DNA of 64,000 nt from a virus (lineage: Duplodnaviria; Caudoviricetes): IMG/VR virus record IMGVR_UViG_3300037312_001491, positions 24,096 to 88,095 of that record; one strand, written 5' to 3'. Shown piece by piece: positions 11,424 to 30,899 of the stretch. Under the pieces are notes generated by a model. The model was not told the origin of the DNA, made no database searches, and was given only the letters and a program-made list of their open reading frames with translations. Each line of letters starts with the position of its first letter. The stretch's first letter is position 1. The position numbers and the translations under genes are program-made.

Positions 11424-11439
11424 TGGTACGCAGGTTGCA
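11424..11439 (+). promoter_or_regulatory. sigma54-like -24/-12 element upstream of portal
   Basis: TGGTACGCAGGTTGCA (GG-N10-GC); a second copy TGGCACAGTGGGTGCA at 11455-11470. Confidence 0.5.
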
Positions 11440-11469
11440 GAGGGACCCGTAGGCTGGCACAGTGGGTGC

Positions 11470-14214
11470 ATGGCCGACGAGAAGTCCGGGCGCACGAAGC
11501 GAGGCACGTTTGCACCTGGCACCTCCGGCAACCCCAGCGGCAGGGCGAAGCCCCGAACCGACGCCGCGCCGGTTACCAGGCTGGACGGCTGGCAGAACTT
11601 CTTCTCCGGCCATGGTGTCTACGGCCGCGACAAGCGCCAGGGGACGAGCTTCAAGGCCGCCACCCTGACGTTCGACCAGCTCGCCGAGCTGTGGCGCGGC
11701 GACGACCTCGCGGCACGCGCCGTCGAGACGCTGCCGAAAGAGTCTCTCCGCGAGGGTTACGATCTGTCGATCCCCGAGGCGGCGCTGGGTGGCGAGGACG
11801 AGGCCGAGCGCATCGCCGAGATCGTCGACGCCCTGTCGACACTGGGGGCGGACGAGACGATCCGTACCGGCCTCTGCTACGAGCGTGGCCTAGGTGGTGG
11901 CGCCGTCCTCATCGGCGCGAACGACGGCCAGGACGACCTGACCAAGCCGCTGCGCCTCGAATCCATCCGTTCGCTCGACTGGCTGACCCCGCTCGAACCG
12001 CGCGAGATCATGCCGGTGTACGGCTACGCCGACCCGCGCGCCCCGAAGTACGGCCAGCCCGAGATCTACCGCATCACGAGCCGCACCATCCTGCCACCGC
12101 AGGATGGCAAGTACGGCAACCAGGTGATGGACATCCACGAGTCGCGGCTCCTGGTGTTCCCCGGCATCCGCGTCAGCCGCTACCAGTACATGGCCTCCCA
12201 GGGCGGTTGGGGTGACTCGGTGCTCATCCGCATGTGGCGCGTGCTCCGCGACTTCAACCTCGCGTGGGGCTCCGCCGGCGCGCTCGTCACCGAGTTCGCC
12301 TCGGCGACGTACAAGATGAAGGACCTGTGGACGGCGCTGTCGACGAAGGGCGGCGCGCAGGCGTTCGCCGAACGCCTCCAGGCGATGGACCTGGCACGGT
12401 CGACCATCAACGCGACTGTCATCGACGGCGACGACGACTTCAAGCGCGAGCAGACGCCGATCTCCGGCCTGCCCGACCTCATGGACAAGTTCTCGACGCG
12501 CCTCGCGGCGGCCGCGGACATGCCGCTCACGCTCCTGTTCGGCACGAGCCCGGCGGGCCTCAACGCCACCGGCGAGTCTGACATTCGCTTCTTCTACGAC
12601 CGCGTCGCCGCGTTCCAGCGCGACAAGGTGCTGCCGCAGCTCAAGACGCTGATCCGGATTCTGTTCCGCACACTCGGCTCAAAGGTGGAGCCCGAGAAGT
12701 GGGACGTCGAGTTCCGTCCACTGTGGCAGGAGAGCGCCAAGGACAAGGCCGCCGCGATGCTCACGCAGGCGCAGGCCGACCACATCTGGGTCACCGACGG
12801 CATGCTGTCGGCCGAGGAGGTGGCGGACGCACACTGGGGCACCGGCAAGTGGGTCCCCGACCTCCGCGTCGACTTCGAGGCGCGCGAGCGCCAGGAGGCT
12901 GCGGCCGCCGCGCCGGTCACGCAAGCTGACTTCGCGGCGATGGGTCGCGGCCCCAACGGCCAGCCGCTCCAGCCAATGCCGGGCCAGCGCCAACTCCAGC
13001 CGGGCCCCGCGCAGTTCGGTCGCCCGCAGCCGCAGCCTGGCTTCGGACAGCCGGTGCAGCGCCAGCTCCAGCCCGGCCCGGCGATGCCAGGTCAGAAGCC
13101 GGTCCCTGGCCAGCAGTCACCCGGTCAGGCGCCAGGCGCGGCCGCCGCTCAGGGTGCCGCCCCCGGCGCAGCTCCGGGCGCGAAGGCGTCGAAGCTCGGC
13201 GCCAGCGGCTACCGCTACGCACCGGACGTCACCCAGCGTGGCCAGGGGGCCGACGACGACATCGACCGCAAGCCGCGCTCGATGGTGCTGTCGAACGACG
13301 CCGACGACCGTCCGCAGCTCAGCGTGGTGCGCGAGGACGTGATCGAGCATGCGTCCGACGGATGGCACGTCTACTCCGAGACCGAGCCGCGCAAGCATCT
13401 CGGCGGCCCGTACCAGACGAAGGAAGGCGCGATTGAACGACTGCGCCAGGTCGAGGGCCACGCCCGTGACGACAGCTTCAACCCGGACCAGCCACGCGCC
13501 GAGAATGGCGAGTGGGGCGAGGGCGGCGCCGGTGGCGCGCACCCGAGCGCACCGACGTCCGGCGAGCACGCCGCAGCGCAGGGCACCTCGTTCGAGCAGG
13601 CCGTCCACGCGGTCTCAGCCGGCGAGAAGCACGGCATGACCGCCGAGCACTTCAAGGCGCTCGTCGAGAGGAAGAAGGCGGAGTCCGACGCGCACAAGAA
13701 CGCGGTCCAGGCGTTCGCCGCCAAGCTCACGCCGATCGAGACGCAGGTCTCCAATGGCTACGGCGTGTTCGGAGAGGTCGTCAACGGTGCACTCCGCGCC
13801 GGTCGCCCGCCCAGCTCGGCCGACGAGAAGGCCGCGATCGGTGCGCTCGATAGTGCCATCAGGAAGTCGAAGGCGCCGGCCGACATGATCGTGTACCGCG
13901 GCATCCACAGTGACCGGGACCCGATGGCCAAGCTCAAGCCCGGTGTCGTCATCCGCGACAAGGGTTACGTGTCGACGACAGGTTCCCGAGACATTGCGGC
14001 CGAGTTCGCGCACCGGGAACACACCGGCAAGCTCGATCCGTCGTCCACGAGCGTCATCGTGAGGATCAAGGTTCCCAAGGGCCACCCAGCCGCGCCGATT
14101 CCGTCGACGTACCGGTTCGAGCACGAGTACCTCCTGCCTCGCGGCAGCAAGTTCAAGATCACCTCGGTCGCGAAAGAGGGCGGGGACACCGTCGTCGAAG
14201 CGGAGGCCCTGTGA
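11470..14214 (+). CDS. portal protein (DUF1073-type) fused to C-terminal ADP-ribosyltransferase
   Basis: aa ~30-470 portal-like (LWRGDDLAARAVETLP, IHESRLL, WGDSVL, GTSPAGLNATGESDIRFFYD, EFRPLWQ); Q/P linker; ART motifs VYRG (13894), STT (13972), EHE (14119). Confidence 0.85.
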   Translation: MADEKSGRTKRGTFAPGTSGNPSGRAKPRTDAAPVTRLDGWQNFFSGHGVYGRDKRQGTSFKAATLTFDQLAELWRGDDLAARAVETLPKESLREGYDLSIPEAALGGEDEAERIAEIVDALSTLGADETIRTGLCYERGLGGGAVLIGANDGQDDLTKPLRLESIRSLDWLTPLEPREIMPVYGYADPRAPKYGQPEIYRITSRTILPPQDGKYGNQVMDIHESRLLVFPGIRVSRYQYMASQGGWGDSVLIRMWRVLRDFNLAWGSAGALVTEFASATYKMKDLWTALSTKGGAQAFAERLQAMDLARSTINATVIDGDDDFKREQTPISGLPDLMDKFSTRLAAAADMPLTLLFGTSPAGLNATGESDIRFFYDRVAAFQRDKVLPQLKTLIRILFRTLGSKVEPEKWDVEFRPLWQESAKDKAAAMLTQAQADHIWVTDGMLSAEEVADAHWGTGKWVPDLRVDFEARERQEAAAAAPVTQADFAAMGRGPNGQPLQPMPGQRQLQPGPAQFGRPQPQPGFGQPVQRQLQPGPAMPGQKPVPGQQSPGQAPGAAAAQGAAPGAAPGAKASKLGASGYRYAPDVTQRGQGADDDIDRKPRSMVLSNDADDRPQLSVVREDVIEHASDGWHVYSETEPRKHLGGPYQTKEGAIERLRQVEGHARDDSFNPDQPRAENGEWGEGGAGGAHPSAPTSGEHAAAQGTSFEQAVHAVSAGEKHGMTAEHFKALVERKKAESDAHKNAVQAFAAKLTPIETQVSNGYGVFGEVVNGALRAGRPPSSADEKAAIGALDSAIRKSKAPADMIVYRGIHSDRDPMAKLKPGVVIRDKGYVSTTGSRDIAAEFAHREHTGKLDPSSTSVIVRIKVPKGHPAAPIPSTYRFEHEYLLPRGSKFKITSVAKEGGDTVVEAEAL

Positions 14215-16205
14215 GCAATAAGCGTTTCACCTGGACCGACGGCGACTTCGAGGTCGTCGAGTCGGGCGACCGCACCGACGACTTCAACCCCGACGAGCCT
14301 CGCGCGGCGGATGGGAAATGGGGCGAGGGCGGCGCCGGCGCCGCACAGAAGACTCCGGCCGCCGGCAAGGCCGGTCCGAAGGGTGAGGCTAAGGAGGCCG
14401 CGGAGTCCAAGGACAAGCCGAAGGCCGAAGACAAGCCGGCCGCGGAGGTGAAGGCGACCACCGCGCACACCGGCGCGTCGTTCGAGGACTGGCACAAGGT
14501 CAACCCGAACGGCAACGGTGAGGTGTTCTCGGACGCGCGCAAGGCGCTCGCGACCGAGACCGTCGGCCAGAACGCGTGGTTCAACTTCTCGAAGGCGAAC
14601 GAGGGCAAGCCGGTCAGCCAGCGCAGCTTCGCCGATCAGAAGGCGTTCCTGCTCGACCCCAAGCTGTACCAGCCGCTCATCGACCGTGCGACGAAGCACG
14701 ACGCCGCGGACGACGAGGACACGGACCTCTACTTCACGTGCCCGTGCCACCGCCGAGCGGCGGCCGCCCGCGCTGACTACGATGAGAGCGAGCCGCGCGA
14801 CGAGAACGGCAAGTGGAGTGGTGGCGGTGGCGGCAGCGCGGCCGCCCCCCACGCACACGGGGGCGAGCACGGCGCACCGCACGGCGGCGCCAAGGAGCTG
14901 GCTGAGAAGGCGAACGCCGGCGGCGGCTTCACCTACGACCCGCACCACGGCAAGTACCCGACGGAAGGCTACGCGGTCTCGATCCACCCGGGCCACGAAG
15001 AGGTCATCCGCTCGAAGGAGCTTTCGCCGGAGGCCGTGAAGGGTTACCTTGACCGGCACGGAGACTACATCCAGAAGCACCCCGGTGCTCACGTCGGCGG
15101 TTGGTATGACGCCGAGGCGGGCAAATGGTACCTGGACGTCAGCCACATCACGCACGACCCACACGAGGCGGAATCCCTCGCGAAGCAGCACAACCAGGAA
15201 GCGTACTACGACCTCGGCAAGCACGAGACCGTCTACGTCAAGTCTGGAAAGGAACGACGACTCGATGAGCGACAAGCCCAAGACACCGCCCGCCGGCGCA
15301 CGAAAGATCTTCTTCGACCCCGCCAAGATGTCCCCCGAGGAGATCGCGGAGGCGATGAAGAAGCACGAGGAGCAGGAGCACGCGCGCCGGGGAATCCCCC
15401 GGAAGCCCGAGTAGACTACTCCCCCGACGAGCCGCGCGCGGCCGATGGGAAGTGGGGCGATGGCGGTGGCGGTGGCCGCGCGGCCGCGTCGTCGCACGTC
15501 GAGCACGCCAAGACCTCGTCGGTCCGCTCGCGCGAGCACGCCGGGAAGGCCGAGACGGAGGCCGACCGCGCGAAGGCGTCGAAGGGCAAGGCGCAGGCCA
15601 AGCACGTCGAGGCGGCGCACGACCACGCCCGCGAGGCCGAGCGTCACGCCCGCGAGGCGAGCGCCGCGGCTGACCGCGCGAAGGAGGCCGGCGGCGAGGA
15701 CTCGCCGTCCGCCAAGGAGGCGTCCAAGCACGCCGTCGAGGCGACCTCCAACGCGAAGGCAGCCCGCACGCAGGCGTCCGGTGCACAGAAGGCCGCGTCG
15801 TCTGGCGGGCAGGCCGGTGCCGCGCGCGCCGCCGCCGACAAGGCGACGAAGGTGGCGGAGAATCTCCACGCCGCCGCGGTTGAGCACCCGACGAAGGCCG
15901 GGCCGACCGCCGAGGAGGCGGACAAACACGCCAAGGCCGCACGCGACCACGCCCGCGCAGCCGCCGGCGCAAAGACGCCCGAGGACGCCGCACAGCACAC
16001 GGCGAAAGCACACGAGCACGCCGCCGCGGCGGAAGAGGCGGCCGCCAAGCTGACCCGCGAGGCCGCGAAGCACGCGCAGCATGAAGGCCACGGCAAGCAC
16101 GCCGAACACGGCGGCCATGGCAAGCACGAGCGCGCCGAGCACAACCACAAGCACGTCGCCGAGAGTTGGCAGGCCCTGCTCAAGATGCTCATGGGTGCCG
16201 GATGA
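14211..16205 (+). CDS. multi-module head-associated protein with three tag repeats
   Basis: 664 aa; three R-x-D..PR...GKW repeats separate distinct modules; Ala/His-rich C-terminus. Confidence 0.7.
   Translation: MSNKRFTWTDGDFEVVESGDRTDDFNPDEPRAADGKWGEGGAGAAQKTPAAGKAGPKGEAKEAAESKDKPKAEDKPAAEVKATTAHTGASFEDWHKVNPNGNGEVFSDARKALATETVGQNAWFNFSKANEGKPVSQRSFADQKAFLLDPKLYQPLIDRATKHDAADDEDTDLYFTCPCHRRAAAARADYDESEPRDENGKWSGGGGGSAAAPHAHGGEHGAPHGGAKELAEKANAGGGFTYDPHHGKYPTEGYAVSIHPGHEEVIRSKELSPEAVKGYLDRHGDYIQKHPGAHVGGWYDAEAGKWYLDVSHITHDPHEAESLAKQHNQEAYYDLGKHETVYVKSGKERRLDERQAQDTARRRTKDLLRPRQDVPRGDRGGDEEARGAGARAPGNPPEARVDYSPDEPRAADGKWGDGGGGGRAAASSHVEHAKTSSVRSREHAGKAETEADRAKASKGKAQAKHVEAAHDHAREAERHAREASAAADRAKEAGGEDSPSAKEASKHAVEATSNAKAARTQASGAQKAASSGGQAGAARAAADKATKVAENLHAAAVEHPTKAGPTAEEADKHAKAARDHARAAAGAKTPEDAAQHTAKAHEHAAAAEEAAAKLTREAAKHAQHEGHGKHAEHGGHGKHERAEHNHKHVAESWQALLKMLMGAG
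15265..15414 (+). CDS. nested out-of-frame small ORF (49 aa)
   Basis: MSDKPKTPPAGARKIFFDPAKMSPEEIAEAM...; G/C-ending codons in this frame while the host frame has many A/T-ending codons; AGGAA upstream. Confidence 0.55.
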   Translation: MSDKPKTPPAGARKIFFDPAKMSPEEIAEAMKKHEEQEHARRGIPRKPE

Positions 16206-17569
16206 GCTGCTGTCGCCTCGACCGCGGGGCGCTGCCGAAGCCGAAGCGGCCGCGTACCCTGCCCATCCAGGTCCCGCCGACAGCGATCGAGGCCCAGTAC
16301 GCCAAGGCGCTCGTCCGGTACGTCATCGGCGCGATGCGCTGGGCGTACGCGCCGCTGCTGCGCGAGGCCCCCAAGCTCGTCAAGGCGCGCGCGGCCGCGC
16401 GGCACGACTCCGCCGACGAGTGCACTACGACGATGTTCGCCGGGCTACCGATCGTAATCGAGAACCCGGCCGGCTCGTTCCGGTACTGGGTCGACACGAC
16501 CGGGCGCGCCGGCACGACGGTGATGCGGTACCCGTACGGCTACGTCCGCGGCGTGCGTGGCGCCGACGGTGACGAGGTCGACGTGTTTATCGGTCCAGAC
16601 GAAGCGGCGCAGTGGGTGTACATCGTGCACCAGCGGTTCGCGCCGAAGTTCGTCGACTTCGACGAGGACAAGGTGATGCTCGGGTTCCCGAGCGCCGACG
16701 CCGCGCGCGCGGCGTACCTCGCGCACTACGACGACCCCCGCTACTTCGGGGGGATGACCCAGGTCCAGCGCGAGGCGTTCGAGCGCGCGGTCGCGGCCGC
16801 TCGCGGCGGCAAGATCACCCACGTCGACTCGCTGACGGCCGTCGCTCGCTACGACTCCCCGGAGTCGCGTCGGGTGCAGAAGCTCATCCGCGAGGCCGCA
16901 CGCCGGCTCCGGCTCAAGCTCAACAAGCGCGAGATCGCGCGGCTGGCGAAAAAGTTCGCCGAGCAGACGAGCACGTACCAGCGCGTGCAGCTCCACCGCC
17001 AGGTCCACGCGGCCCTGGGCATCGCGGCGCCGCTCGCCGCCGAGTACACGCAGAGTCGCATCGCCGACTTCGTTCGCGAGAACGTCGCGCTCATCTCGCG
17101 GATTCCACAGGAGCACCACGGCGAAATCGAGACGATGGTCCACCGTGCGGTCACCAGCGGCCAGCTCACCGACGATCTCGCCGACGACCTGGAGGACGAG
17201 TTCGCGCTCTCCGAACGCCACGCGCGTTTCATCGCTCGTGATCAGATCGGCAAGCTCCAGGCCGACCTCAACCACGCGCGCCAGCGTGACCTCGGCGTCA
17301 AAAAGTTTGTGTGGCGGACGATGCGCGACGAGCGCGTCCGCGGCACGCCCGGCGGCCTGTACCCCAACGCGCAGCCCAGCCACTTCGACCTCGATGGCCA
17401 GGAGTTCTCCTACGACGACCCTCCGCAGCCACCTGGTGCCCAGGGGCCGCTTCTACCCGGGGATGACTACAACTGCCGCTGCTACGCCGAACCAGTTTTT
17501 GATGAGCTGGTGGAGGACCTGCGCGTGGCCGAAGTCGATCCGGACGAAGCGTCGATGGAAGCGGAATAG
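16202..17569 (+). CDS. MuF/SPP1 gp7-like minor head protein with inserted inorganic-pyrophosphatase-like domain
   Basis: ARFIARDQIGKL, KKFVWRTMRDERVR, H..LDG..F, PGDDYNCRC (MuF); insert IENPAGS.R..YPYGY..GADGDEVDVFIG..DEDKVMLGF at ~16400-16855. Confidence 0.85.
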   Translation: MSCCRLDRGALPKPKRPRTLPIQVPPTAIEAQYAKALVRYVIGAMRWAYAPLLREAPKLVKARAAARHDSADECTTTMFAGLPIVIENPAGSFRYWVDTTGRAGTTVMRYPYGYVRGVRGADGDEVDVFIGPDEAAQWVYIVHQRFAPKFVDFDEDKVMLGFPSADAARAAYLAHYDDPRYFGGMTQVQREAFERAVAAARGGKITHVDSLTAVARYDSPESRRVQKLIREAARRLRLKLNKREIARLAKKFAEQTSTYQRVQLHRQVHAALGIAAPLAAEYTQSRIADFVRENVALISRIPQEHHGEIETMVHRAVTSGQLTDDLADDLEDEFALSERHARFIARDQIGKLQADLNHARQRDLGVKKFVWRTMRDERVRGTPGGLYPNAQPSHFDLDGQEFSYDDPPQPPGAQGPLLPGDDYNCRCYAEPVFDELVEDLRVAEVDPDEASMEAE

Positions 17570-17623
17570 CTCCAGAACTTACGCGAGCATGGCGCGATCC
17601 GGAGGGGGTGCCATCCTGACAGG

Positions 17624-17875: not shown

Positions 17876-18132
17876 CCGCCGAGGCGTTCCTCCTGGGCAT
17901 CGTCGTATTCGTCGCGGCCGCGCTGTACGACGCCATCTTCGCGGCGTACGTGCGGTTCGCCGCAGGCGGCCAGGCAACGAAGGCGGCGCTGACCTCCGTC
18001 ATGACCTACGTCGTAGGCGCCGTGGGACTTTTGGCGCTCGTCAAAGTGTCGATCTGGTACAGCCTCCCTGAGGCCGCCGGGCTGTACACCGGCACGCTCG
18101 CTGGGGTATGGGCCGGAAGGGACAAGGATTGA
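17872..18132 (+). CDS. small multi-pass membrane protein (86 aa)
   Basis: GAGGAGG RBS, GTG 17872, about three hydrophobic segments. Confidence 0.65.
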   Translation: MTAEAFLLGIVVFVAAALYDAIFAAYVRFAAGGQATKAALTSVMTYVVGAVGLLALVKVSIWYSLPEAAGLYTGTLAGVWAGRDKD

Positions 18133-18341
18133 TGCTGCTCGGACTGCTCCTCGCTGCCGTCGTTGGATTCGAGGTCGCCAGGACTGGACCAGCATTCGAG
18201 GAGCGGCGACGCGCAAGACTGGAACGGCAGCTCGCCCCGGCAAAAGTCATGTACTTACCGAGCGCTGTAGGGCGCGGGCTCGGCCAAGCCGGCGGCCGGT
18301 GCACGTCTCCCACATGCGCCATCTGCCACGGCCGTTCCTGA
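18132..18341 (+). CDS. hypothetical protein with N-terminal hydrophobic segment
   Basis: TGATG coupling; C-terminal CTSPTCAICH. Confidence 0.45.
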   Translation: MLLGLLLAAVVGFEVARTGPAFEERRRARLERQLAPAKVMYLPSAVGRGLGQAGGRCTSPTCAICHGRS

Positions 18342-18343
18342 AC

Positions 18344-18359
18344 TGGCACGATTCTTGCG
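18344..18359 (+). promoter_or_regulatory. sigma54-like -24/-12 promoter
   Basis: TGGCACGATTCTTGCG, near-consensus; 33 nt upstream of an ATG with GGGGAG RBS. Confidence 0.7.
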
Positions 18360-18392
18360 CTGAGCCCATCCCCCTGTCATCATGGGGGAGTA

Positions 18393-20120
18393 ATGGCGAC
18401 CCATCGCCGGCTCGACCTCGGAGAACTGCGGCCCATGACCCGCCGCGGGGACGGGACCGTCCGCGTCCAGGCGCACCTCACGCGCTGTGGCGTGTTTCCA
18501 TACCTCCAGCCCGACGGCACCATTCGCCGCGAGCTGCGCCCCCGCGACGAGGTGATGGATCCGGAGTCCCTGGCGTCGTTCGCCGGCGTGCCTGTCACCA
18601 ACGACCACCCGCCCGAGATGGTCGACTCGAAGAACGCCCGCAAGTACGCGGTCGGCTCGCTCCAGGGGACGCCGATTCCCGACGACGACCACGTCCGCGG
18701 CGATCTCTCCGTCTACGACGGCGAGACCATCGGCCAGATGGACAGCGGCTCGCGGCGCCAGGTTAGCCTGGGCTACACCTGTGACCTCGAAGAGACGCCA
18801 GGCGTCGATCCGGTCTACGGCCCCTACGATGCCATCCAGCGGAACATCCGCGGCAACCACGTCGCCCTGGTGACGACGGCCCGCGCCGGTGGCACGGCAC
18901 GCGTCCGCCTCGACGCTGCGGAGCAGCTTGATGGCACGGTTCTTGCGCTCTGCACGAACTGTGCCAAGATGCATTTCATGGCGACCAACGCCGCGCACGC
19001 CGACGCAAGCGAGACCGACAAGCCGCAGGGTGGCAAGCCCGAGGCTGGTGACCCGGACACGGGTGACGAGGCTTCGCGCAACGCCGCCGGCGCGAACGAC
19101 GCGCAGGCCGGCGATAAGGCCAAGAAGCCGCCGGCGACCGCCGACGACACCGACACGAAGGTCGAGCGCGACAGCGCCGACGACGACGAGGAAGACGACA
19201 CCCCCACCGATGGCGGCGATGACGACGACACCTCGGACGACGACGACGATGAAGGCGACGACTCGGACGACGACACCGACGCCGGTGACGACGACGAGGA
19301 AGACCGCGACGATGACGGCGAGCAGCTGTCGGACGAGGACCGCCACAAGATGGCGACCAGCTCGTTCGCGGTGCCAGACCGAGAAGGTCTGCCCATCCAC
19401 GACCCCGATCACACGCGGGCCGCGATGGCGCGCTTCAACCAGTACAAGTTCAAGTCGCCCGAAGAGAAGCACGCAGCGTTCAACCGGATCACCCGGCGCG
19501 CGTCGCACTTCGGCATCGACAGCAAGGGTTTCGAGGAGGCGCATCGCGACCGCCTCGACCGCGAGGACGACGAGATGAAGAAGATCGCCCAGCTCCAGAC
19601 TAAGCTCGACGCGGCCGAGAAGAAGCTCGCAACGGCCGAAGGCCAGGTCGCCAGCCTCACCAAGGACCTCGAAGCCGCGAAGAAGACGACCGAGTCGGCC
19701 CGCAAGGACGCCGCCGATCGCTTCGACGCGATGGTCGCCGAGCGCGTCGCGCTCCTGACCGAGGCCGCCGCGACTGGCGCGAAGGTCGACGCGAAGATGT
19801 CGTCGATCGAGATCAAGCGCACCGTCGTCAAGCACGTCGACGGCGAGGACATCCCGGCCGAGAAGCCGGAGCCGTACGTCGACGCGTACTACGAGGGCGC
19901 TCTCAAGCGCGCTCGCAGGGACGCCGAGGACACGAAGAAGGGCGCAGACGCCCTCGCCGCCGCGCGCGCCACCGCCGCGGGTGCGACGCAGCCGGTCCCG
20001 CAGCCGGTCCCGCACAACGACGCCGACGACACCGATGAGCAGGCGGCCTACGCCCGCGCGAACGCCCGCAACGCCGAGGCGTGGACCCACTCGTGGGGCC
20101 GCACTCAGGAGAACAAGTAA
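18393..20120 (+). CDS. DUF2213 prohead protease/scaffold with acidic linker and DUF6582-like insert
   Basis: LTRCGVFPY, RPRDEV..PESLASF.G.PVTNDHP, QVSLGYTCDL, IQRNIRGNHVALV..ARAG; insert FAVP.R..LPIHD..H.RAAMARFNQ; coiled-coil scaffold tail. Confidence 0.85.
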   Translation: MATHRRLDLGELRPMTRRGDGTVRVQAHLTRCGVFPYLQPDGTIRRELRPRDEVMDPESLASFAGVPVTNDHPPEMVDSKNARKYAVGSLQGTPIPDDDHVRGDLSVYDGETIGQMDSGSRRQVSLGYTCDLEETPGVDPVYGPYDAIQRNIRGNHVALVTTARAGGTARVRLDAAEQLDGTVLALCTNCAKMHFMATNAAHADASETDKPQGGKPEAGDPDTGDEASRNAAGANDAQAGDKAKKPPATADDTDTKVERDSADDDEEDDTPTDGGDDDDTSDDDDDEGDDSDDDTDAGDDDEEDRDDDGEQLSDEDRHKMATSSFAVPDREGLPIHDPDHTRAAMARFNQYKFKSPEEKHAAFNRITRRASHFGIDSKGFEEAHRDRLDREDDEMKKIAQLQTKLDAAEKKLATAEGQVASLTKDLEAAKKTTESARKDAADRFDAMVAERVALLTEAAATGAKVDAKMSSIEIKRTVVKHVDGEDIPAEKPEPYVDAYYEGALKRARRDAEDTKKGADALAAARATAAGATQPVPQPVPHNDADDTDEQAAYARANARNAEAWTHSWGRTQENK

Positions 20121-20675: not shown

Positions 20676-21074
20676 ATGAGCGTCACACGCCGTGAGAACA
20701 AGACCCTCCAGGAGAGGGATCGGGTCGAGGCGACCATCGTCGCCGCGGTCGCCGCCACCTCCAGCATCGCGCTGGGCACGATGGACCGCGACTACGTCGT
20801 CGACTCGTTCGAGGTCGAAGCCCCCGGCGGCTACACCGCCGATGACGCCAACCGGTACACCATCACGCTCCAAGCGGGCGCGACGGTGCTGGCGACGCTC
20901 GACCTCACCACCGCAACCGGCAGCCTCGTGGACCTCGTGTTCAAGGCCGCCACGCTCGCCGCGACGCACTACGGCTCGGCCGGGGACACCCTCAAGGCCG
21001 TCCTCACCAAGAACGGCACGGCCGCCAACATCCCCGCCGGTACTCGCCTCGTGGCGAAGTGCCACCTGCTCTAA
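20676..21074 (+). CDS. virion-associated hypothetical protein (132 aa)
   Basis: RBS GAGGAG; position in the head module. Confidence 0.6.
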   Translation: MSVTRRENKTLQERDRVEATIVAAVAATSSIALGTMDRDYVVDSFEVEAPGGYTADDANRYTITLQAGATVLATLDLTTATGSLVDLVFKAATLAATHYGSAGDTLKAVLTKNGTAANIPAGTRLVAKCHLL

Positions 21075-21088
21075 GAGAGGCCACGATC

Positions 21089-22165
21089 ATGTCCTTCAAC
21101 GTCACCGCCCGTTTCTCCCAGGAGCGTCTCGACAAGATGCTCGCCCAGTCGCGTGGGTATGACCCCCGCGCGCCGCGTGCTGCCCGCATCGACAGCCTGA
21201 GTGACAACCAGCGCCACCTGCTCGAAGGCATCTTCCACCGTGACGCCTCGGAGAGCATCTGGTTCGCGCGCCAGCTGGAGTACATCCGCCCCGGCCTGCT
21301 CGACGTCCTCTACCCGGCGCTCAACGGCCGGTCGCTCGTGCCGATCGAGTCGTCGATGGGTCCGGGTGCGTCGATGTGGACCTACCGCTCGTTCGACAAG
21401 GTCGGTAGCGCCGCCCTCGTCGACGACTACGCGATGGACCCGCCGCGCGCCGACGTGAAGGGCCGCGAGGACACGCAGGTCATCAAGCCGTACGGCGTCA
21501 TGTACGGCTACAACTTCCAGGAGCTTCGCGCCGGCATGATGGCGCAGCTGCCCCTGGACACGCGCAAGGCGATGGCCGCGCGCTACGCCATGGAGAGGAA
21601 GATCGACGAGATCATCTTCTACGGCGACACGGCCGGCGGCCTCAAGGGCCTCCTGAACCAGGCGAACACGACCACGTTCAACGTGGCGAACGGCGCCAAG
21701 GGCACCACGTTCTGGAAGGACAAGAGCCCGGACGAGATCGTGCGTGACATGCACGACTTCGTGAACAACGTCGTGTCGACGAGCCTGGGCGTGTACCAGC
21801 CGACGACCCTGGTGCTGCCGCTCCGCGCGCATCAGATCGCGTCGACGACCCGCATGGGCGACGGCTCGAACGAGACGGTCCTCTCGTTCTTCCAGAAGAC
21901 GAACCCGTACATCCAGGAGGTCATCGCCTCCTACCGCCTCAACTACTCGCAGCGCGCGAACTGGGGTGGCTCGTCGGGTCGCATGATGTGCTACGAGAAG
22001 TCGCCGGACCGGCTGGTCATGATCCTGCCGGTCGAGTTCGAGCAGCTCCCCCCGCAGCAGGAAGGCTACGAGTACAAGACGCTCTGCCACATGCGCACGG
22101 GCGGCGTCGTCTCGCTGCACCCGCAGGCGATCTCGTACGGCGACGGCATCACCAACAGCGACTAA
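21089..22165 (+). CDS. major capsid protein (DUF2184-like HK97 fold)
   Basis: FARQLEYI, YGYNFQELRA, ERKIDEIIFYGD...KGLLN, PVEFEQLPPQ, RTGGV...P..I.Y.DGI. Confidence 0.85.
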   Translation: MSFNVTARFSQERLDKMLAQSRGYDPRAPRAARIDSLSDNQRHLLEGIFHRDASESIWFARQLEYIRPGLLDVLYPALNGRSLVPIESSMGPGASMWTYRSFDKVGSAALVDDYAMDPPRADVKGREDTQVIKPYGVMYGYNFQELRAGMMAQLPLDTRKAMAARYAMERKIDEIIFYGDTAGGLKGLLNQANTTTFNVANGAKGTTFWKDKSPDEIVRDMHDFVNNVVSTSLGVYQPTTLVLPLRAHQIASTTRMGDGSNETVLSFFQKTNPYIQEVIASYRLNYSQRANWGGSSGRMMCYEKSPDRLVMILPVEFEQLPPQQEGYEYKTLCHMRTGGVVSLHPQAISYGDGITNSD

Positions 22166-22201
22166 CGTCGCGTAGGGGCGCCTTCCAGGGACATCCCCCG
22201 T

Positions 22202-22240
22202 GGCCCCGCCACCTCCAGGTGCGCGGGGCCTTTCGCTTTT
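22202..22240 (+). terminator. intrinsic terminator after capsid gene
   Basis: GGCCCCGC-CACCT-CC-AGGTG-C-GCGGGGCC hairpin followed by TTTCGCTTTT. Confidence 0.75.
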
Positions 22241-22253
22241 CTAGGAGCCAATC

Positions 22254-23443: not shown

Positions 23444-23799
23444 GCCTCCTCGACTCCCTCGCGGACTTCGTCACCGGGACGTACACGGTCACGCGCACTG
23501 TCACCGGCGGCTACGACGTGCACGGCAAGAATGTCGCCGGCAGCACGAGCACGCTGTCCGTCGACGCGTCGCTCCAGCCGCTGACCGGCCGCGACCTGAT
23601 GGCGCTCCCCGAAGGTCAACGATCCCAGGAGACGCAGTGGTTCTACGCGGCCGTCCAGATGCACGGTCGCGAGCCCGGCTTCGAGCCCGACAAGGTCACC
23701 ATCGACGGTGAGCCGTGGGTCATCACTTCCGTCGAGAAGTGGGTCGACGGCGACGACGTCTGGTACCGCTGCAAGGTCTCGCGGAGGGCTGCACCGTGA
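23440..23799 (+). CDS. head closure/stopper protein
   Basis: ASLQPL...L..LPEGQR; position in the neck module. Confidence 0.65.
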   Translation: MSLLDSLADFVTGTYTVTRTVTGGYDVHGKNVAGSTSTLSVDASLQPLTGRDLMALPEGQRSQETQWFYAAVQMHGREPGFEPDKVTIDGEPWVITSVEKWVDGDDVWYRCKVSRRAAP

Positions 23800-24620
23800 G
23801 CGGCCCAGGCATCGCATGGACGACGGTCGAGGATGCTCTCCACGACTGGATCACGTACGCCACCGGCCTCGCGAACGACCACGTCATCTGGTCCGGGCAG
23901 AACGCCGACCGGCCTTCGACGCCGTTTGTCGAGATGACGCTTGGCGTGGTCCAGCGCGTCGGCCTGGACGGCGTGCAGTTCGTCGACGCGCCGCTCGTGC
24001 TCGCGCCACTCGTGGCGACGCCGACGGTCGCGACGAGCACGTTCCTCTCCGTCGCCCACGGCCGCAACACCGGTGACGGTCCGGTCCGCCCGACCGCGGA
24101 CGGCTACGGTCTGCTCGCCGACACCAACTACTGGTTCATCGTCATCGACGCCGACCACTTCCAGCTGGCGACGTCGTTCCAGCTCGCGATGGCGCTGACG
24201 GCGCTCGCGCTCTCCGCGGGATCGGGCAACGTGACGTTCGCCTCCACCGCGGACACCGTGGCCGCCGGCGCCGAGATGACTGCGAAGTCTTTCGGCATGC
24301 GGAGGGTGCGCGTCACGTTCCAGGCGTTCGCCACCGACGCCTTCGGGAACAACGCCGCCGGGCCGCTGCTCGACTCGGTGGTCACCGCTCTGCCGCGCCG
24401 CGCCAGCACCCTGCGTGCGGCGGGGGTTTGCGTGCTGGACTGCAACGCCGTCACCACGAGCGGCGGGGTCATTGATTCCAGCATCTTCGAGCCACGGGCG
24501 GTCCTGGAGATCGTCCTGTCGCTCGCCAGTGAAGTCGACGAACCGACCACGCGGATCGAACGCGCCCTGGTCACCCCCACCGTCGATGGGGTCGTCAAGC
24601 CGACCACCACGGTGGCCTGA
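23796..24620 (+). CDS. tail terminator/neck protein with internal beta-rich insertion
   Basis: Precedes sheath; VIWSGQNADRP.TPF N-terminus; insert AHG..TGD..V...NTYWF..DADHFQLA. Confidence 0.6.
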   Translation: MSGPGIAWTTVEDALHDWITYATGLANDHVIWSGQNADRPSTPFVEMTLGVVQRVGLDGVQFVDAPLVLAPLVATPTVATSTFLSVAHGRNTGDGPVRPTADGYGLLADTNYWFIVIDADHFQLATSFQLAMALTALALSAGSGNVTFASTADTVAAGAEMTAKSFGMRRVRVTFQAFATDAFGNNAAGPLLDSVVTALPRRASTLRAAGVCVLDCNAVTTSGGVIDSSIFEPRAVLEIVLSLASEVDEPTTRIERALVTPTVDGVVKPTTTVA

Positions 24621-24636
24621 TGCAAAAACTGTGCCA
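24621..24636 (-). promoter_or_regulatory. inverted sigma54-like element upstream of sheath
   Basis: Reverse complement is TGGCACAGTTTTTGCA, identical to 30884-30899. Confidence 0.5.
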
Positions 24637-24653: not shown

Positions 24654-26003
24654 ATGGCCACGCTGACCGACTACGTCCAGATCACGATTACCCGGGACAC
24701 GGTGGGCATCACCGCGCCTGGCTATGGCACCCCGCTGGTCCTGGGGTACTCGGCCACCTGGGCTGATCGCATTCGCTTCTACGAGGACCTGCCGTCGATG
24801 GTAACGGACGGGTTCGCCACCGACTCGCCCGAGTACCTGGCGGTCCAGGCGATGCTCTCGCAGAACCCCAGGCCAGTCCAGGTCGCGGTCGGCAAGGGCC
24901 TCCTCAAGCCGACGCAGGTCTACGTGGTCGGCGTGAACTCGGTCGCGAACACGACGAACTACGTCGTGACCGTGGCAGGCCACGGCGTGACCACCACGAC
25001 GCTGACGTACACGTCGGACAGCTCGGCCACCAACGACGAGATCGTCGCCGGTCTGGTGACGGCGCTCAACGGTGTCGTTGGCAAGAACTACACGGCGGTG
25101 GCAACCGGTTCGGCAGGCTCACAGGTCGTGACCATCACCGCCTCCTCGGCAGGTGAGTGGTTCTCGATCGCCATCGACGACCCGGCGTTCCTGTCGAACA
25201 AGCAGACCCAGGCGGACCCCGGCATCGCCACCGACCTCGCGGCCATCCTCAACGCGAACCCAGGCTTCTACGGCGTCTACACGACGTTCAACAGCCAGGC
25301 GATCGTCGCGGCGACGGCGGCGTGGGTCGAAGCGAACACGCGCATCTACGTACCGGACGTCCCCGAGACGCTCGCGGTCACGACGACCGGAGGCTCCGGC
25401 GGTTCGGCGGACACGCTCGACGCGCTCCACACGTCGAACTACGCGCGCACGCTCGGCGCCTACCACCCCAGCCCGGTGAACATGCTCGGCGCGGCGTGGC
25501 TCGGCAAGATGCTTCCGCTCGACCCCGGCTCGGCGACGTGGAAGTTCAAGACGCTCGGCGGCGTTGCGTTCACCAAGTACACGACGACTCAGCGCAACAA
25601 CCTGCTGAGCCGCCAGGCGAATGGCTACGAGAACGTCGCCGGTCTGTCGGTGACCTTCGAGGGCACCTCGGCTGACGGTGAGTACCTCGACGCCATCGTC
25701 GGCGACGACTGGGTCACGACGGACATGCAGGTCCGCATCCTGACCGTGATGGCGGCCGCGAACAAGACGGAGTTCGAGGACACCGGCATCGCGCGCGTCG
25801 AGGCGGCTGTCCGCGCGACGCTCAAGGAAGCTGTGCGCCGCAAGATCTACGCGGCGAGCCCGCGCCCGCAGGTCACCGTCCCACTGGCCGCGAACGTCTC
25901 GACGGCTGACAAGTCCACCCGGACCCTGCCCGACATCAAGTGGACCGCGACCCGTAGCGGCGCGATCCACAAGACGAAGGTCCAGGGGACCGTGTCCCTC
26001 TAG
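24654..26003 (+). CDS. tail sheath protein (DUF3383-like)
   Basis: DSPEYLA...SQNPRP, PGSATWKFKTL.GV, G.Y.D.I.G.DW; followed by the tube gene. Confidence 0.85.
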   Translation: MATLTDYVQITITRDTVGITAPGYGTPLVLGYSATWADRIRFYEDLPSMVTDGFATDSPEYLAVQAMLSQNPRPVQVAVGKGLLKPTQVYVVGVNSVANTTNYVVTVAGHGVTTTTLTYTSDSSATNDEIVAGLVTALNGVVGKNYTAVATGSAGSQVVTITASSAGEWFSIAIDDPAFLSNKQTQADPGIATDLAAILNANPGFYGVYTTFNSQAIVAATAAWVEANTRIYVPDVPETLAVTTTGGSGGSADTLDALHTSNYARTLGAYHPSPVNMLGAAWLGKMLPLDPGSATWKFKTLGGVAFTKYTTTQRNNLLSRQANGYENVAGLSVTFEGTSADGEYLDAIVGDDWVTTDMQVRILTVMAAANKTEFEDTGIARVEAAVRATLKEAVRRKIYAASPRPQVTVPLAANVSTADKSTRTLPDIKWTATRSGAIHKTKVQGTVSL

Positions 26004-26018
26004 TGAGGTAGCCCCGCC

Positions 26019-26459: not shown

Positions 26460-26462
26460 TCC

Positions 26463-27097: not shown

Positions 27098-27100
27098 GCC

Positions 27101-28690
27101 ATGGACGTCGCAGAACTCGTCGCATACCTCGGCCTCGCCATTGACGAGGAGGCGTGGAACCGTGGCCAGGAGCTGATCGAGAAGGCGCGCCACGGTGTCG
27201 AGGGCCTGAGCGAGGCGTCGAAGAAGCACCACAAGGAGGCCGACGAGGAGAAGTCGAAGTTCGGCGAGCTGAATGAGGTCCTGGAGAAGGGCCTCGAAAC
27301 GCTGATCGGCTACGAGGGCGTCAAGTCGTTTGGTGAACTACTCGAACACACGTCGAGGATGGTGTTCGAGGCCGGCAAGATGGCCCAGCGCATCGGCATG
27401 AGCGTCGAGTCCCTCCAAGCTCTCCAGTACGCCGCATCGCAGTCGGACGTCGCCGTCGACTCTCTCCAGTACGGCCTCCAGCGCCTCGCCTTCAACCTGT
27501 CGCTGACTGGCGAGCGCGGAAAGTTCGCCGACGAGGCTCTGCGCAAGATCGGGATGACTCAGGCCGGCGTGCAGGCGCAGCTCAAGAGCGGCCACGGCCT
27601 TGACGATGTCCTCGGCGAGATGGCCGACAAGTTCAAAAGCATGCCCGATGGTGCCGAAAAGGCGGCCATTGCGATGCAGCTGTTCGGTCGCACCGCCGGC
27701 CCTGAGATGATCCCCCTGCTCGACAAAGGGCGCGAGGGCCTGGCGCAACTCAAGGAGGAGGCGGAGGACCTCGGCGCGACGATGGGCGAGGAGGACGTCG
27801 AGCAGGTCAACGAGCTGGAAAAGGCGCAGAAGCGCCTGCATGCGCGTTGGGAGGGCCTCAAATTCCAGCTCATCACCGCGGTCATTCCGGCGATTCACGC
27901 GCTGGTCGACGCGTTCGCGTTCGCGTCGAAGGTCATTAGCCACAACACGCCGGTCATGATCGGCATTTTGGCGGCGCTGTCGGCCGCCATGCTCGCAACC
28001 GCGGCATCGGCGGCGATGGCCTGGTACGCGATTGTGGCTCCGTTTCTCGCCGTCATTGCGCCAATCGCGGTAGCCGTCGCCGTCATCGCTACCGCGGTCA
28101 CGTACCTTGTCGAGGCGGTCGAGGGCAAGCTCACCAAGTTCGGGCAGGTGCTCGTCGCGGTGGGTCTGCTCATCATGTACGTATTCGCGCCGTGGATGGC
28201 CGTCGTCACCGCCATCGTCGCGCTCGGCACGCTGCTGTACCGTCACTGGGATGAGGTCGCCGACAAGTTCTCCGAGATCTGGAACAAGCTGACCGGCGGC
28301 ATGGAGGGTGTGCGCGACCTGTTCGACGAGTACGGCCCCGAGATCGCGGCAGCGCTCACCATCGCGTTCGGACCCATCGGTGCCGCGGTCGCTGGCATCG
28401 CCTGGATCATCACGCACTGGGACCAGGTCAAGGACGCGGTCGGCGCATTCGTCGGCGGCATCGACGGTGGTGCAGTCGGCCTCATGGATCGCATGCAGAA
28501 CCCGTCGCGTGCCGGCGATGCGAACGCCATCGGCAAGCCTGCCGACAATGGCACCAACAACAACGTCGAGGTGCACAACAACGTCACCATCAACACCGGA
28601 GCGAGCAAGGACGACGTGAAGCAGGTGGTCAAGGAGCACTTCGACAACACGATGGTTCACACGATGAACGCCGTGAAGAAGGGAGGCTAG
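27101..28690 (+). CDS. tape measure protein (529 aa)
   Basis: Helical, Ala-rich; IGMSVESLQALQYAA, A.AMQLFG; hydrophobic central segment; position. Confidence 0.85.
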   Translation: MDVAELVAYLGLAIDEEAWNRGQELIEKARHGVEGLSEASKKHHKEADEEKSKFGELNEVLEKGLETLIGYEGVKSFGELLEHTSRMVFEAGKMAQRIGMSVESLQALQYAASQSDVAVDSLQYGLQRLAFNLSLTGERGKFADEALRKIGMTQAGVQAQLKSGHGLDDVLGEMADKFKSMPDGAEKAAIAMQLFGRTAGPEMIPLLDKGREGLAQLKEEAEDLGATMGEEDVEQVNELEKAQKRLHARWEGLKFQLITAVIPAIHALVDAFAFASKVISHNTPVMIGILAALSAAMLATAASAAMAWYAIVAPFLAVIAPIAVAVAVIATAVTYLVEAVEGKLTKFGQVLVAVGLLIMYVFAPWMAVVTAIVALGTLLYRHWDEVADKFSEIWNKLTGGMEGVRDLFDEYGPEIAAALTIAFGPIGAAVAGIAWIITHWDQVKDAVGAFVGGIDGGAVGLMDRMQNPSRAGDANAIGKPADNGTNNNVEVHNNVTINTGASKDDVKQVVKEHFDNTMVHTMNAVKKGG

Positions 28691-28694
28691 CACC

Positions 28695-29516
28695 GTGTCC
28701 GACCAGCCCATCATCAACGACTACAAGCTCGCGACCTGCATGATCGACGGGTTTCCGATTGACGCGACCGTCTCAGAGAATCACGAACACGAAGCCGAGG
28801 TCACGGAGTTCCCCGTCGAGAAGGGGGCGGACACGACCGACAACCGCCGGCGCAAAAACCTCCGCGTGACGATGGAAGGCATCGTCAGCGACACGCCGCT
28901 CGGAGCCATCGCGCGGCACCAGACCCGTCAGTCGGGTATCCCGTCGGACACCGCGTACGCCAAGCTCATCGCGCTCGACGGCAGCGACGAGACGGTCACC
29001 ATCGTCTCGTCCAAGGGCGTCTTCAAGAACATGCTCATGACCTCGCTGGAATTCCCGGCCGAGGGCGCGGAACCACACCAGCTCCACTTCCGCGCGCAGT
29101 TCAAGCAGGTCAACTTCGTCACGAACAACCGCACGACGATTCGCGTAGCGACACCGGCCGGCGTACGCGGCCCGCTCGTCACCGGCGCGACCCTGGCGAA
29201 GCTGGGGAACATGCGCATCCTCGTGTTCACGCTCAAGGCGAAGGACCCACGGCGTCCGAGCTATCCGCTCATCCTTGTCGAGAAAAACGGCGACCGCCAC
29301 TACGAGACCTTCCCTGGCGTGTTCGGTACGCCGAAGCCCGACGGCGCCGTAGAGTCCGATGGCTACCACCCGTTCGACGCATTCGGCGCGACGCTCGACG
29401 GTCACACCGGGCAGTGGAACTACAAGGGCAAGCCGGTGACGGCGCGTCCGAACGCCTCCAAGACCGACACCAGCAACGGGTGGCACGAGTTCACCGCGGG
29501 CATGACGAACTTCTAG
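28695..29516 (+). CDS. baseplate/tail-tube initiator-like protein
   Basis: DAT.SE.H..EAEVTEFPVEKGA..TDN pattern. Confidence 0.7.
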   Translation: MSDQPIINDYKLATCMIDGFPIDATVSENHEHEAEVTEFPVEKGADTTDNRRRKNLRVTMEGIVSDTPLGAIARHQTRQSGIPSDTAYAKLIALDGSDETVTIVSSKGVFKNMLMTSLEFPAEGAEPHQLHFRAQFKQVNFVTNNRTTIRVATPAGVRGPLVTGATLAKLGNMRILVFTLKAKDPRRPSYPLILVEKNGDRHYETFPGVFGTPKPDGAVESDGYHPFDAFGATLDGHTGQWNYKGKPVTARPNASKTDTSNGWHEFTAGMTNF

Positions 29517-29526
29517 GAGGACGACG

Positions 29527-29874
29527 ATGGCGGTACACCTCATCCCACTCCTTCCGTCGCAGCCCGACTACCTATTCTCCGTCGTGCTGGAGACGACGCC
29601 GTACGGCATGCACGTGTGCTGGAACGACCGCGATGCGGCCTGGTACTTCGACGTGCTCGATGCCGGCGGCACCATCATCCAGGCCGGCATCAAGATTGTG
29701 CTCGGTGCCTACCTCGGCCGCGCAATGCGTGTGTCGCCGTTCACCGACGGCGTGTTCATCGCGGTCGATACTTCGCGTGCCGGTCTCGACGCGACGTTCA
29801 ACGACCTCGGCACGCGCGTCCTCCTCTACTACGTGCCAGCACTCGACCTGCTCGCCGGCATGATGATCGCATGA
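29527..29874 (+). CDS. small baseplate protein
   Basis: WN.RD.AWYFDV.D, GIKIV.G..L; position. Confidence 0.7.
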   Translation: MAVHLIPLLPSQPDYLFSVVLETTPYGMHVCWNDRDAAWYFDVLDAGGTIIQAGIKIVLGAYLGRAMRVSPFTDGVFIAVDTSRAGLDATFNDLGTRVLLYYVPALDLLAGMMIA

Positions 29875-30881
29875 GCACGCGCCTCTATAAGCGCGGCTGC
29901 AAGGTCACGCTCATCACGCCGAAGCGGCTGCCCAACGCGTTCTTCGACCGCGAGCCGGGCTCACAGAACGCGATCGAGATCACTGACATGCGCGTGCGGT
30001 TCGAGATTGAACGGCACGTCAAGAGTGACCCGAACCACTGCGAGGTCATCATCACGAACCTCGCGGAGCGCACGCGCAGCCTCTGCGAGAAAAAGCCGCT
30101 CCAGGTGTGGATCGACGCTGGCTACGACGGTGTGCTCTACCAGCTGTTCACCGGCGACCTGCGCCTGGGCTACTCGAAGCTGGAGAAGCCAGAGTGGCAC
30201 ACGCACATGAAGCTCGGCGACGGCGACCGCGCGCTGCGCCTGGCGCGCGTGAACCGCTCGTATTCCAGCGGCACGCCGATCCTGACGGCGGTGCGAGACA
30301 CCGCGGCCTCGATGGGGCTGACGATCAACCCGGCGGAGGCGTCGAGGCTCGCCTCGCTCCAGATCCAATTCCTGGCCCCCAAGGCAGTTCAGGGGTCATC
30401 GCGCGATGAGCTGACGCGTCTGCTGTCGCCGTACGGGATTACCTGGTCCATCCAGAACGGCCGGCTCCAGCTCCTCCGCGACACCGACGCGCTCCAGGGC
30501 CAGACGGTACTGGTTAGCCAGGACACCGGTCTCATCGGCTCGCCATCGTTCACCACGCCGACGCAGGGGAGCAGCCTCAACGGCAAGCCATCCCAAATCC
30601 GATTCAAGATGCTGCTCTACCCCCTGCTTACGCCGGGGCAGCTGGTCGAGGTGCATTCGCGCGACGTCGCCGGTCGCACCTTCCGGGTCGAACGCTTGAC
30701 ACATCGCGGAGATACGCATGGCGATGAGTGGTTCACCGAGGTCGAAGCGTCGCCGGCGCAGCCCAGCACCGGTACCAAGCCGTCCGTCGTATCTCCGATT
30801 GCGCCAGATCACCCGTTCACGGACCATGTGAAGGAGTTCGGCCAGCAGCTCACTAAGAAGTTTTCCGGAAAGAAGACCTAA
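29871..30881 (+). CDS. baseplate hub protein
   Basis: F.IE...KS.PN.....I.NL, AGY, GDG, WSIQNG.LQ, GLIGSP, G..HG.EW. Confidence 0.8.
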   Translation: MSTRLYKRGCKVTLITPKRLPNAFFDREPGSQNAIEITDMRVRFEIERHVKSDPNHCEVIITNLAERTRSLCEKKPLQVWIDAGYDGVLYQLFTGDLRLGYSKLEKPEWHTHMKLGDGDRALRLARVNRSYSSGTPILTAVRDTAASMGLTINPAEASRLASLQIQFLAPKAVQGSSRDELTRLLSPYGITWSIQNGRLQLLRDTDALQGQTVLVSQDTGLIGSPSFTTPTQGSSLNGKPSQIRFKMLLYPLLTPGQLVEVHSRDVAGRTFRVERLTHRGDTHGDEWFTEVEASPAQPSTGTKPSVVSPIAPDHPFTDHVKEFGQQLTKKFSGKKT

Positions 30882-30883
30882 GC

Positions 30884-30899
30884 TGGCACAGTTTTTGCA
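30884..30899 (+). promoter_or_regulatory. sigma54-like -24/-12 element upstream of spike gene
   Basis: TGGCACAGTTTTTGCA (GG-N10-GC). Confidence 0.6.

Follow-up and report, generated by a model that had tools for sequence, protein, structure and literature searches.

The late arm of a contractile-tailed phage carries eight copies of a short motif, TGGCAC-N5-TTGC, that resembles the recognition sequence of the bacterial sigma factor σ54 (RpoN). The DNA analysed here (the window) is 64,000 nucleotides long and comprises bases 24096–88095 of the 88,095-bp IMG/VR virus record IMGVR_UViG_3300037312_001491, which CheckV rates as complete. Our preferred reading, to which we give a probability of about 0.4, is that the eight sites are orientation-tolerant docking sites for the host σ54 RNA polymerase at the 5' borders of the late gene modules, and that they would act by occupancy. 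Within this reading the identification of the motif as a σ54 site is well supported by its sequence and seems to us likely, and the sites are probably real docking sites for the host enzyme. We favour occupancy because it explains together why direction seems not to matter, why start codons are overlapped, why sites occur in pairs and are confined to the late arm, and why no activator is encoded. A relaxed-pattern search of the whole genome places all eight copies between positions 11424 and 38651 of the window and none in the leftward arm, which holds the early and tRNA genes and covers about 48 kb in a rough gene map. The copies fall at six locations; five copies are in the sense direction and three (18951, 24621 and 38636) antisense. 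The first-pass annotation, which had read five of these 16-mers as σ54 promoters of the late operons, gave all five coordinates and strands correctly, including the identity of the copies at 24621 (−) and 30884 (+). It overlooked the pair 18932 (+)/18951 (−) and the copy at 38636 (−), and its statement that one element is inverted is true of 24621 but understates the matter, since three of the eight are antisense and antisense is the rule before the sheath gene across the phage family (below).

The sites lie very close to the genes that they border. At the portal gene (11470–14214, fused to an ADP-ribosyltransferase) there are two copies, of which A1 (11424–11439, +; TGGTAC-N5-TTGCA, one mismatch) starts 2 nt 3' of the stop codon of the preceding open reading frame (ORF) and is the weakest of all, although it is the sole copy able to serve the portal gene (predicted start about 11450); the last base of A2 (11455–11470, +; TGGCAC-N5-GTGCA) is the A of the portal ATG, and its predicted start, about 11481, is inside the ORF. 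Site B (18344–18359, +) matches the consensus exactly, 2 nt 3' of the stop of ORF 18108–18341, with a predicted start at about 18370 and 33 nt between it and the protease ATG at 18393. Site C is a convergent pair (18932–18947, +, and 18951–18966, −, with a 5-nt gap between the 15-mers) within the protease-scaffold ORF, just 5' of the in-frame internal ATGs 18969 and 18978, which are likely, to judge from their position, to be the start of a nested scaffold gene. Site D (24621–24636, −), again an exact match, is directly 3' of the TGA of gene 23715–24620 (in the neck or tail-terminator region); it ends 17 nt from the ATG of the sheath gene (24654–26003), and its predicted start, about 24610, would be leftward. 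Site E (30884–30899, +), an exact match identical to D, is between the stop of the baseplate hub gene (29616–30881) and the ATG of the spike gene (30919–31629), with a predicted start at about 30910, and site F (38636–38651, −; TGGCAT-N5-TTGCA) overlaps the ATG at 38645 of the gene 3' of the DUF2612 baseplate gene. The motifs at 11424, 18344, 24621 and 30884 start 0–2 nt past the upstream stop codon, so these junctions consist of scarcely more than a stop, the motif, a ribosome-binding site and a start codon. A gene-directed start upstream of the start codon is possible at 11424, 18344, 18932 and 30884 but not at 11455, 18951, 24621 or 38636. The DNA 5' of every site is coding sequence, though no search was aimed at enhancers (upstream activating sequences 80–150 bp upstream).

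The exact motif is strongly enriched relative to shuffled sequence, a comparison that the first-pass annotation had called for: four copies were observed where 0.11 are expected, and none of 100 shuffles reached four. With one mismatch or fewer there are nine copies (4.1 expected), and with two or fewer the enrichment is gone; the full 16-mer with three or fewer mismatches occurs five times (0.06 expected). To examine the right half of the motif without assuming it, we used all 309 TGGCA[CT] words in the motif-positive loci; TTGC stands at offset +11 in 41 of them and at other offsets in one to three, GTGC stands at +11 in seven, and TGCCA, the partner that a dyad would require, is at the corresponding position in only two. 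A symmetric dimer operator of the form TGGCA-N7-TGCCA is excluded by these counts. Positions that had played no part in finding the sites are also σ54-like in a set of 52 aligned sites, where TGGCAC is followed by a purine in 45 (35 G, 10 A) and TTGC by A or T in 44, and where a pyrimidine mostly precedes the motif. Within TGGCAC-N5-TTGCW the GG-N10-GC spacing is fixed, as in −24/−12 elements, where recognition is centred on the GG at −24 and the TGC at −12 (PMC3844500), and the phage sites look like the Salmonella σ54 sites that chromatin immunoprecipitation has located and that are listed in the same paper, among them those of rpoH, rsr (the Ro60 operon), glnK and pspA. The motif is asymmetric and rigidly spaced and has σ54-like secondary preferences, which therefore rules out a symmetric operator, and its description as an RpoN-type −24/−12 element thus holds beyond the positions by which it was recognized. 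Two other interpretations of the motif fared poorly. An extended −10 element (TGGCACNGT) that would give leaderless mRNAs fits the portal site, but the ninth base is not consistently T and the invariant TTGC is left unexplained; and no convincing remnants of a decayed palindrome were found beside the single sites.

Relatives of this phage have the motif at the same junctions. The sheath protein has hundreds of metagenomic homologues; loci around them were gathered by alignment-based scans of viral, genome and metagenome collections (scans of viral and metagenome contigs with single proteins found none), and in a subset of the loci the motif is far above background, with, for example, two to three exact copies in 13–22 kb. 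Gene order is kept in the relatives, whose late genes are all on one strand, and their motifs occupy the positions used in the window, namely the junctions ahead of the portal, protease, sheath and spike genes, the one that follows the DUF2612 baseplate gene, and the place within the protease-scaffold ORF about 10 nt 5' of an in-frame internal ATG. The proteins that flank the shared junctions are 35–75% identical. The nearest relative (L008/G001, 60–75% protein identity) has its five sites from protease to fibre all antisense. In L008 the orthologue of site B is inverted (position 2473); at site C there is an inverted copy only, 10 nt 5' of an in-frame internal ATG; the motif of site E is inverted at the spike junction, with 15 of 16 bases identical; and at site F an antisense copy follows the homologue of gene 38086–38592. 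The sixth site, before the portal gene, is sense but abuts the portal ATG in the same register as 11455, where a σ54 start would fall about 11 nt inside conserved coding sequence, and none of the six orthologous sites in G001 is usable for starting late mRNA.

Orientation varies in the rest of the family. Two relatives (L003 and L005) have sense copies only, and other relatives are mixed. Before the sheath gene, among 162 non-redundant relatives, 15 sites are antisense and four sense; three of those four belong to pairs, and single sites there are antisense in 12 cases and sense in one. Within the protease ORF of the relatives six copies are antisense and none sense. A hand count over the whole family gives about 16 sense to 29 antisense, which is compatible with no preference (p = 0.07) but very different from E. 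coli, in which 42 of 50 intergenic σ54 sites are gene-directed (PMC4591121; p = 4e-13 for the comparison). Because antisense is the rule before the sheath gene and none of the six sites of G001 is usable, sense promoter activity cannot, as far as such comparisons of sequence go, be the conserved function of these sites. The GTGCCA of inverted copies might have been the −35 of a sense σ70 promoter, and in L081 and L032 it does stand 17 nt from a TAnnnT box, but the arrangement is not found in the other relatives.

Viral contigs unrelated to this family carry the motif as well, in close-packed convergent pairs. The pair TGGCAC-N5-TTGC-N5-GCAA-N5-GTGCCA is found in exact form in 44 viral contigs, against about 0.1 expected by our own estimate, and when the gap is left free between 0 and 30 nt at least 120 viral contigs have such a pair. 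The contigs that carry pairs span 28–61% GC. Of 145 distinct convergent pairs, 127 have a gap of 3–7 nt; the spacing of tandem copies peaks at 27–28 bp and that of divergent ones at 25 and 35 bp. The purine after TGGCAC and the A or T after TTGC hold also in 118 distinct pairs from the unrelated phages. An RNA or DNA hairpin can be drawn for the 18932/18951 pair, whose arms can pair, but across those 118 pairs the two N5 arms match on average at 1.48 of 5 positions, close to the 1.25 that unbiased bases would give; the pair is thus better taken as two protein sites than as a hairpin, since the variable bases of its arms are not complementary. The σ54 consensus is conserved across bacterial phyla. 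A factor common to such different phages would most simply be a host factor, and it is the recurrence of the same motif in unrelated phages of 28–61% GC that argues for a conserved host protein as its binder. In one relative (G003) six tandem copies about 28 bp apart lie in a non-coding region; at locus L107 (G003 46200–46345) six tandem copies of a unit of about 19 bp (ggtactgaacggatgttca), iteron-like, are flanked by σ54-type sites, and these units may mark an origin or control region.

The phage encodes no recognizable activator for σ54 and no RpoN of its own. Neither PF00158 nor PF04552 has a hit in the whole genome, and six-frame translation of the genome contains no GAFTGA motif, no Walker A motif of the type found in bacterial enhancer-binding proteins (bEBPs) and no RpoN box; the earlier remark that no AAA+ activator is recognizable, made for the window, therefore extends to the complete genome. 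Four relatives likewise have no bEBP apart from one weak generic AAA+ match, and that match (PF00158, 26 bits, in G002) was not taken for a bEBP, as the same family in a control also matches genomes that lack σ54. What the phage does have, and what the first-pass annotation overlooked, is an ECF-type sigma factor of the σ70 family (regions 2 and 4_2; 45338–46060, +), the last gene of the rightward arm. A small ORF with a CxxC zinc finger (44944–45318, +) lies 5' of it and could encode a partner. The sigma gene is present in four of four motif-positive relatives and in none of five motif-negative ones, a co-occurrence that is probably phylogenetic, and among unrelated phages with the paired motif one of five has a sigma gene. 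The motif is a poor candidate for the promoter of this ECF-type sigma factor: its elements are 5 nt apart, the problem of orientation is the same, and unrelated phages with the motif mostly lack the sigma gene.

Boxes that resemble σ70-type −10 elements adjoin some of the sites. TAGGCT (11450–11455, +) can be read between A1 and A2; TAGACT (30907–30912, +, inside GGCTAGACT) stands 7 nt 3' of site E and 7 nt 5' of the spike ATG at 30919, as the first-pass annotation had noted; and TAGTCT (38630–38635, +, inside TGCTAGTCT) abuts site F, 9 nt 5' of ATG 38645. CTAG is about six-fold under-represented in the genome (42 copies, about 260 expected), and despite this rarity GCTAGNCT-type boxes adjoin three of the six site locations (A, E and F). 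In most relatives a GCTAGnnT box in gene orientation accompanies the pre-sheath motif. Of 63 sites, 21 have a CTAG no more than about 25 nt away, where 12% would be expected (a crude control, as intergenic DNA may differ from coding DNA). The few intergenic copies of CTAG in the phage are GCTAGNNT boxes, found by σ54-type sites (24644, 30906 and 38629) and in the divergent early control region (5431, −). The TAGNCT boxes resemble the −10 (TAGGTT) of the early promoters, and the junctions may hold σ70-type promoters without a −35 that the σ54 site overlaps. A scan of the late arm for σ70 consensus promoters gave only chance-level matches.

The early promoters form a family of five copies of TTGACR-N6-CCCTGCGTRCRYAGGTT, σ70-type and all co-oriented with the leftward genes; two are in the window (5351–5379, −, TTGACA-N17-TAGGTT, and 4982–5009, −) and three lie before it, at genome positions 17–20 kb. 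Their spacer is unusually conserved, which suggests that an extra factor binds there. The sequence that site A1 had been said to share with an early promoter is real: a 12-mer, GTACGCAGGTTG, recurs at 4981 (−), where it overlaps the −10 region of the promoter.

Under the occupancy reading the σ54 polymerase would bind these sites as a stable, silent closed complex and would hold the late modules back whatever the direction of the site, as the bound enzyme would cover the junction with its −10-like boxes, ribosome-binding sites and start codons. Both properties have parallels in bacteria, where σ54 polymerase is the one holoenzyme that stays stably bound without transcribing (PMC3844500) and where a second promoter that overlaps the σ54 site is repressed by it (PMC4591121). 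At 11424, 18344, 18932 and 30884 the sense copies could also work as enhancer-dependent promoters, provided that an activator of the host is active. For release late in infection we infer, purely, that replication would multiply the sites beyond the small pool of σ54; alternatively, the phage ECF-type sigma factor might take over core polymerase.

Several points, of which this supposed release is one, weigh against occupancy. A direct test in E. coli found that σ54 bound within genes did not lower the expression of the overlapping genes, i.e. there was no roadblock (PMC4591121), and occlusion of an overlapping promoter is the sole established mode of repression, while −10-like boxes can be recognized here at only three locations out of six. 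Direction may matter after all, given that antisense prevails by 15 to 4 ahead of the sheath gene, and this would favour antisense firing over pure occupancy. The phage sigma factor has no assigned promoter and the late promoters proper are not located. Finally, the presence of rpoN in the host of this phage is something that we infer. The host evidence at hand comes from metagenome-assembled genomes: rpoN is present in a Kofleriaceae genome with the contig of a motif-positive relative, absent from an Actinomycetota genome with a motif-negative relative, and present in a Bdellovibrionales genome whose contig lacks the motif, a pattern that is compatible with the σ54 idea, no more than that. 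In one soil metatranscriptome there are contigs of a near relative over the scaffold, capsid, sheath and tube genes, from which neither starts nor strand can be read, and we draw no conclusion from them.

The proposal that the late operons are driven by host RpoN promoters, with the σ54 polymerase and a host or unseen activator starting them about 12 nt past the GC, now seems to us rather unlikely as a general account, although it is possible for the four sense copies of this phage. Several things speak for it: the consensus is of textbook quality, the sites are at late-arm borders (heading the portal, protease, scaffold and spike units) and at conserved junctions, no σ70-type consensus promoter is seen in the late arm, and some promoters of the Pseudomonas phage YuA are reported to depend on host σ54 (Ceyssens 2008, as cited in PMC10914365). 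The lack of a phage-encoded activator agrees with its appeal to a host one, and activators without a DNA-binding domain can act at any σ54 promoter (PMC3844500). It is the orientation that does not fit, in that three of eight copies point antisense, those of the sheath and fibre units without exception, the start from 11455 would fall inside the portal ORF, and the nearest relative and the family as a whole are as described above; the absence of a bEBP from phage and relatives and the presence of a phage sigma factor also count against it. Turning the idea around, the antisense copies might be the real σ54 promoters, and head-on transcription or antisense RNA would then damp the virion genes when a host activator is active (for example in starvation or envelope stress), with the sense copies doing the opposite. 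The predominance of antisense, conserved before the sheath gene, speaks for this, the sites have the high quality of working promoters, and E. coli RNAs transcribed by σ54 antisense to genes have been discussed (PMC4591121). We nevertheless regard it as improbable, for beyond the sites the ORF maps show nothing that antisense transcription could serve (no gene, no terminator and no conserved RNA), close relatives differ in the orientation of the site at the protease junction and at that of the spike, the convergent pairs and the 27–28-bp tandem arrays are packed too tightly for independent promoters, and here too no activator is known.

Two further explanations dispense with σ54 promoters altogether. 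The first-pass annotation had offered, as its own alternative, an orientation-independent activator site; the independence of orientation does fit the data better than promoters do, but the binder is more likely host σ54 than a phage activator, given the motif in unrelated phages. The broader form of this idea, in which a DNA-binding protein of the phage, or another that is not σ54, would use the motif as its operator for late control in the manner of stoperators or MotA boxes, the motif merely resembling the σ54 consensus, is likewise improbable in our view. Regulator sites typically tolerate either orientation, form arrays and pairs and lie at junctions, a tandem spacing of 27–28 bp is tight for whole holoenzymes, and within the family the phage sigma gene accompanies the motif, being present in all five motif-positive genomes and in none of the five motif-negative ones; on the other side are the strong asymmetry, the secondary preferences, which copy the σ54 consensus, the occurrence of the motif in unrelated phages, most of them without a sigma gene, and the 5-nt spacing of its elements, which is unfit for a σ70-family promoter. 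Least probable of all these is that the sites are a sponge for σ54 with no local role, which would shut down the host regulon, and that they are intergenic because a 16-bp motif fits coding sequence poorly. Dense arrays and close-packed pairs in many phages, and near-perfect sites with irrelevant orientation and no activator, are what a sponge might look like, but all eight copies are in the compact late arm and none is in the larger non-coding stretches of the early/tRNA arm, the same junctions are used across relatives, and one pair sits within coding sequence, precisely where the internal scaffold gene would start.

The phage sites share with bacterial −24/−12 promoters the GG-N10-GC, the TGGCAC and TTGCW elements, the purine after TGGCAC and the strict spacing, and their match to the consensus is at least equal to that of most mapped bacterial σ54 sites. 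They differ in that many face away from genes or overlap start codons, in their pairs and tandem copies, in the lack of an encoded activator and in the absence of free upstream DNA for an enhancer. Phage YuA, as reported in PMC10914365, is alike in having neither an RNA polymerase nor an activator of its own and in having σ54-type sites in the region for particle formation; those were working sense promoters in a promoter trap and an rpoN mutant (Ceyssens et al. 2008), unlike the sites here, which are of mixed or antisense orientation in a phage with its own ECF-type sigma factor. Another parallel is with E. coli and Salmonella, whose silent or outward-facing σ54 sites (Bonocora et al. 2015, PMC4591121; Samuels et al. 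2013, PMC3844500) also have good motifs, are conserved, are unusable as promoters of the adjacent genes and are bound without transcription. The phage sites have just these features (a good σ54 motif, a position conserved among relatives and no use to the adjacent gene); the bacterial ones are mostly sense and of lower quality, whereas those of the phage are near-consensus, at junctions and mostly antisense.

The stoperators of mycobacteriophage L5 and other Cluster A phages are many short asymmetric sites in the tight gaps of long operons that have been proposed to act by occupancy. Their ligand is the repressor of the phage, and relative to transcription they all point the same way. Here, on the other hand, orientation varies and the likely binder is the host polymerase. 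In YuA, the one studied case of σ54 use by a phage in the literature covered here, the promoters are ordinary and sense, while the present family has near-perfect sites at fixed junctions with free or mostly antisense direction and no encoded activator. If σ54 does bind, such phages would use the stably bound, non-transcribing form of the polymerase as a DNA-bound switch, and this would be a new kind of late-gene control. More speculatively, and with little likelihood in our judgement, the sites might form a timer that counts genome copies, in which the few σ54 polymerases of the host, bound silently to the junctions, would keep the late modules off at first and would be outnumbered by the sites once the DNA has replicated; late transcription after release would then be driven by the phage sigma factor or by host σ70 at the TAGNCT boxes, and other phages, with their dense pairs and arrays, would use this device too, or a sponge derived from it. 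As far as we have found, σ54 has not been described before as a copy-counting timer in general use by phages, and if the idea were true it would be such a general use.

The phage belongs to a family of soil myoviruses, and the window is 64–70% GC. Megablast against phage records gave no match, and no close sequenced relative was found; the nearest cultured relatives are below 33–38% identity, and their hosts are Proteobacteria. The rightward arm begins with homologues of rIIA and rIIB, continues with the virion genes and the endolysin, and ends with the ECF-type sigma factor. The rIIA-like product has 806 aa and a GHKL ATPase domain, the rIIB-like one 432 aa; their genes, at 6801–10491, are just 5' of the first σ54-type sites. 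Virion genes in addition to those named above encode a Mu-F-like head protein (16166–17569), the major capsid protein (21059–22165), the tape measure (27101–28690) and baseplate J (32038–33393). The sheath genes of L008, L022, L032, L039 and L041 have an insertion of about 90 residues similar to residues 96–154 of the product of window gene 23715–24620, which suggests a shared Ig-like module.

The internal ATGs at 18969 and 18978 lie within a single protease (DUF2213)/scaffold-like ORF (18393–20120, 575 aa), and L008 shares the nested layout (ORF 2496–4688, internal ATG 3468), which looks like a nested scaffold gene of the λ C/Nu3 kind. The gap 3' of the major capsid gene (22166–22253), which is without a σ54-type site, has a GC-rich hairpin and then a T-run (22223–22236) that looks like an intrinsic terminator, apparently the sole clear one on the sense strand of the late arm. 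In the protease leader (18360–18392) a CCCCC (18371) can pair with the GGGGG of the ribosome-binding site (18385), and the hairpin so formed could mask the initiation of translation.

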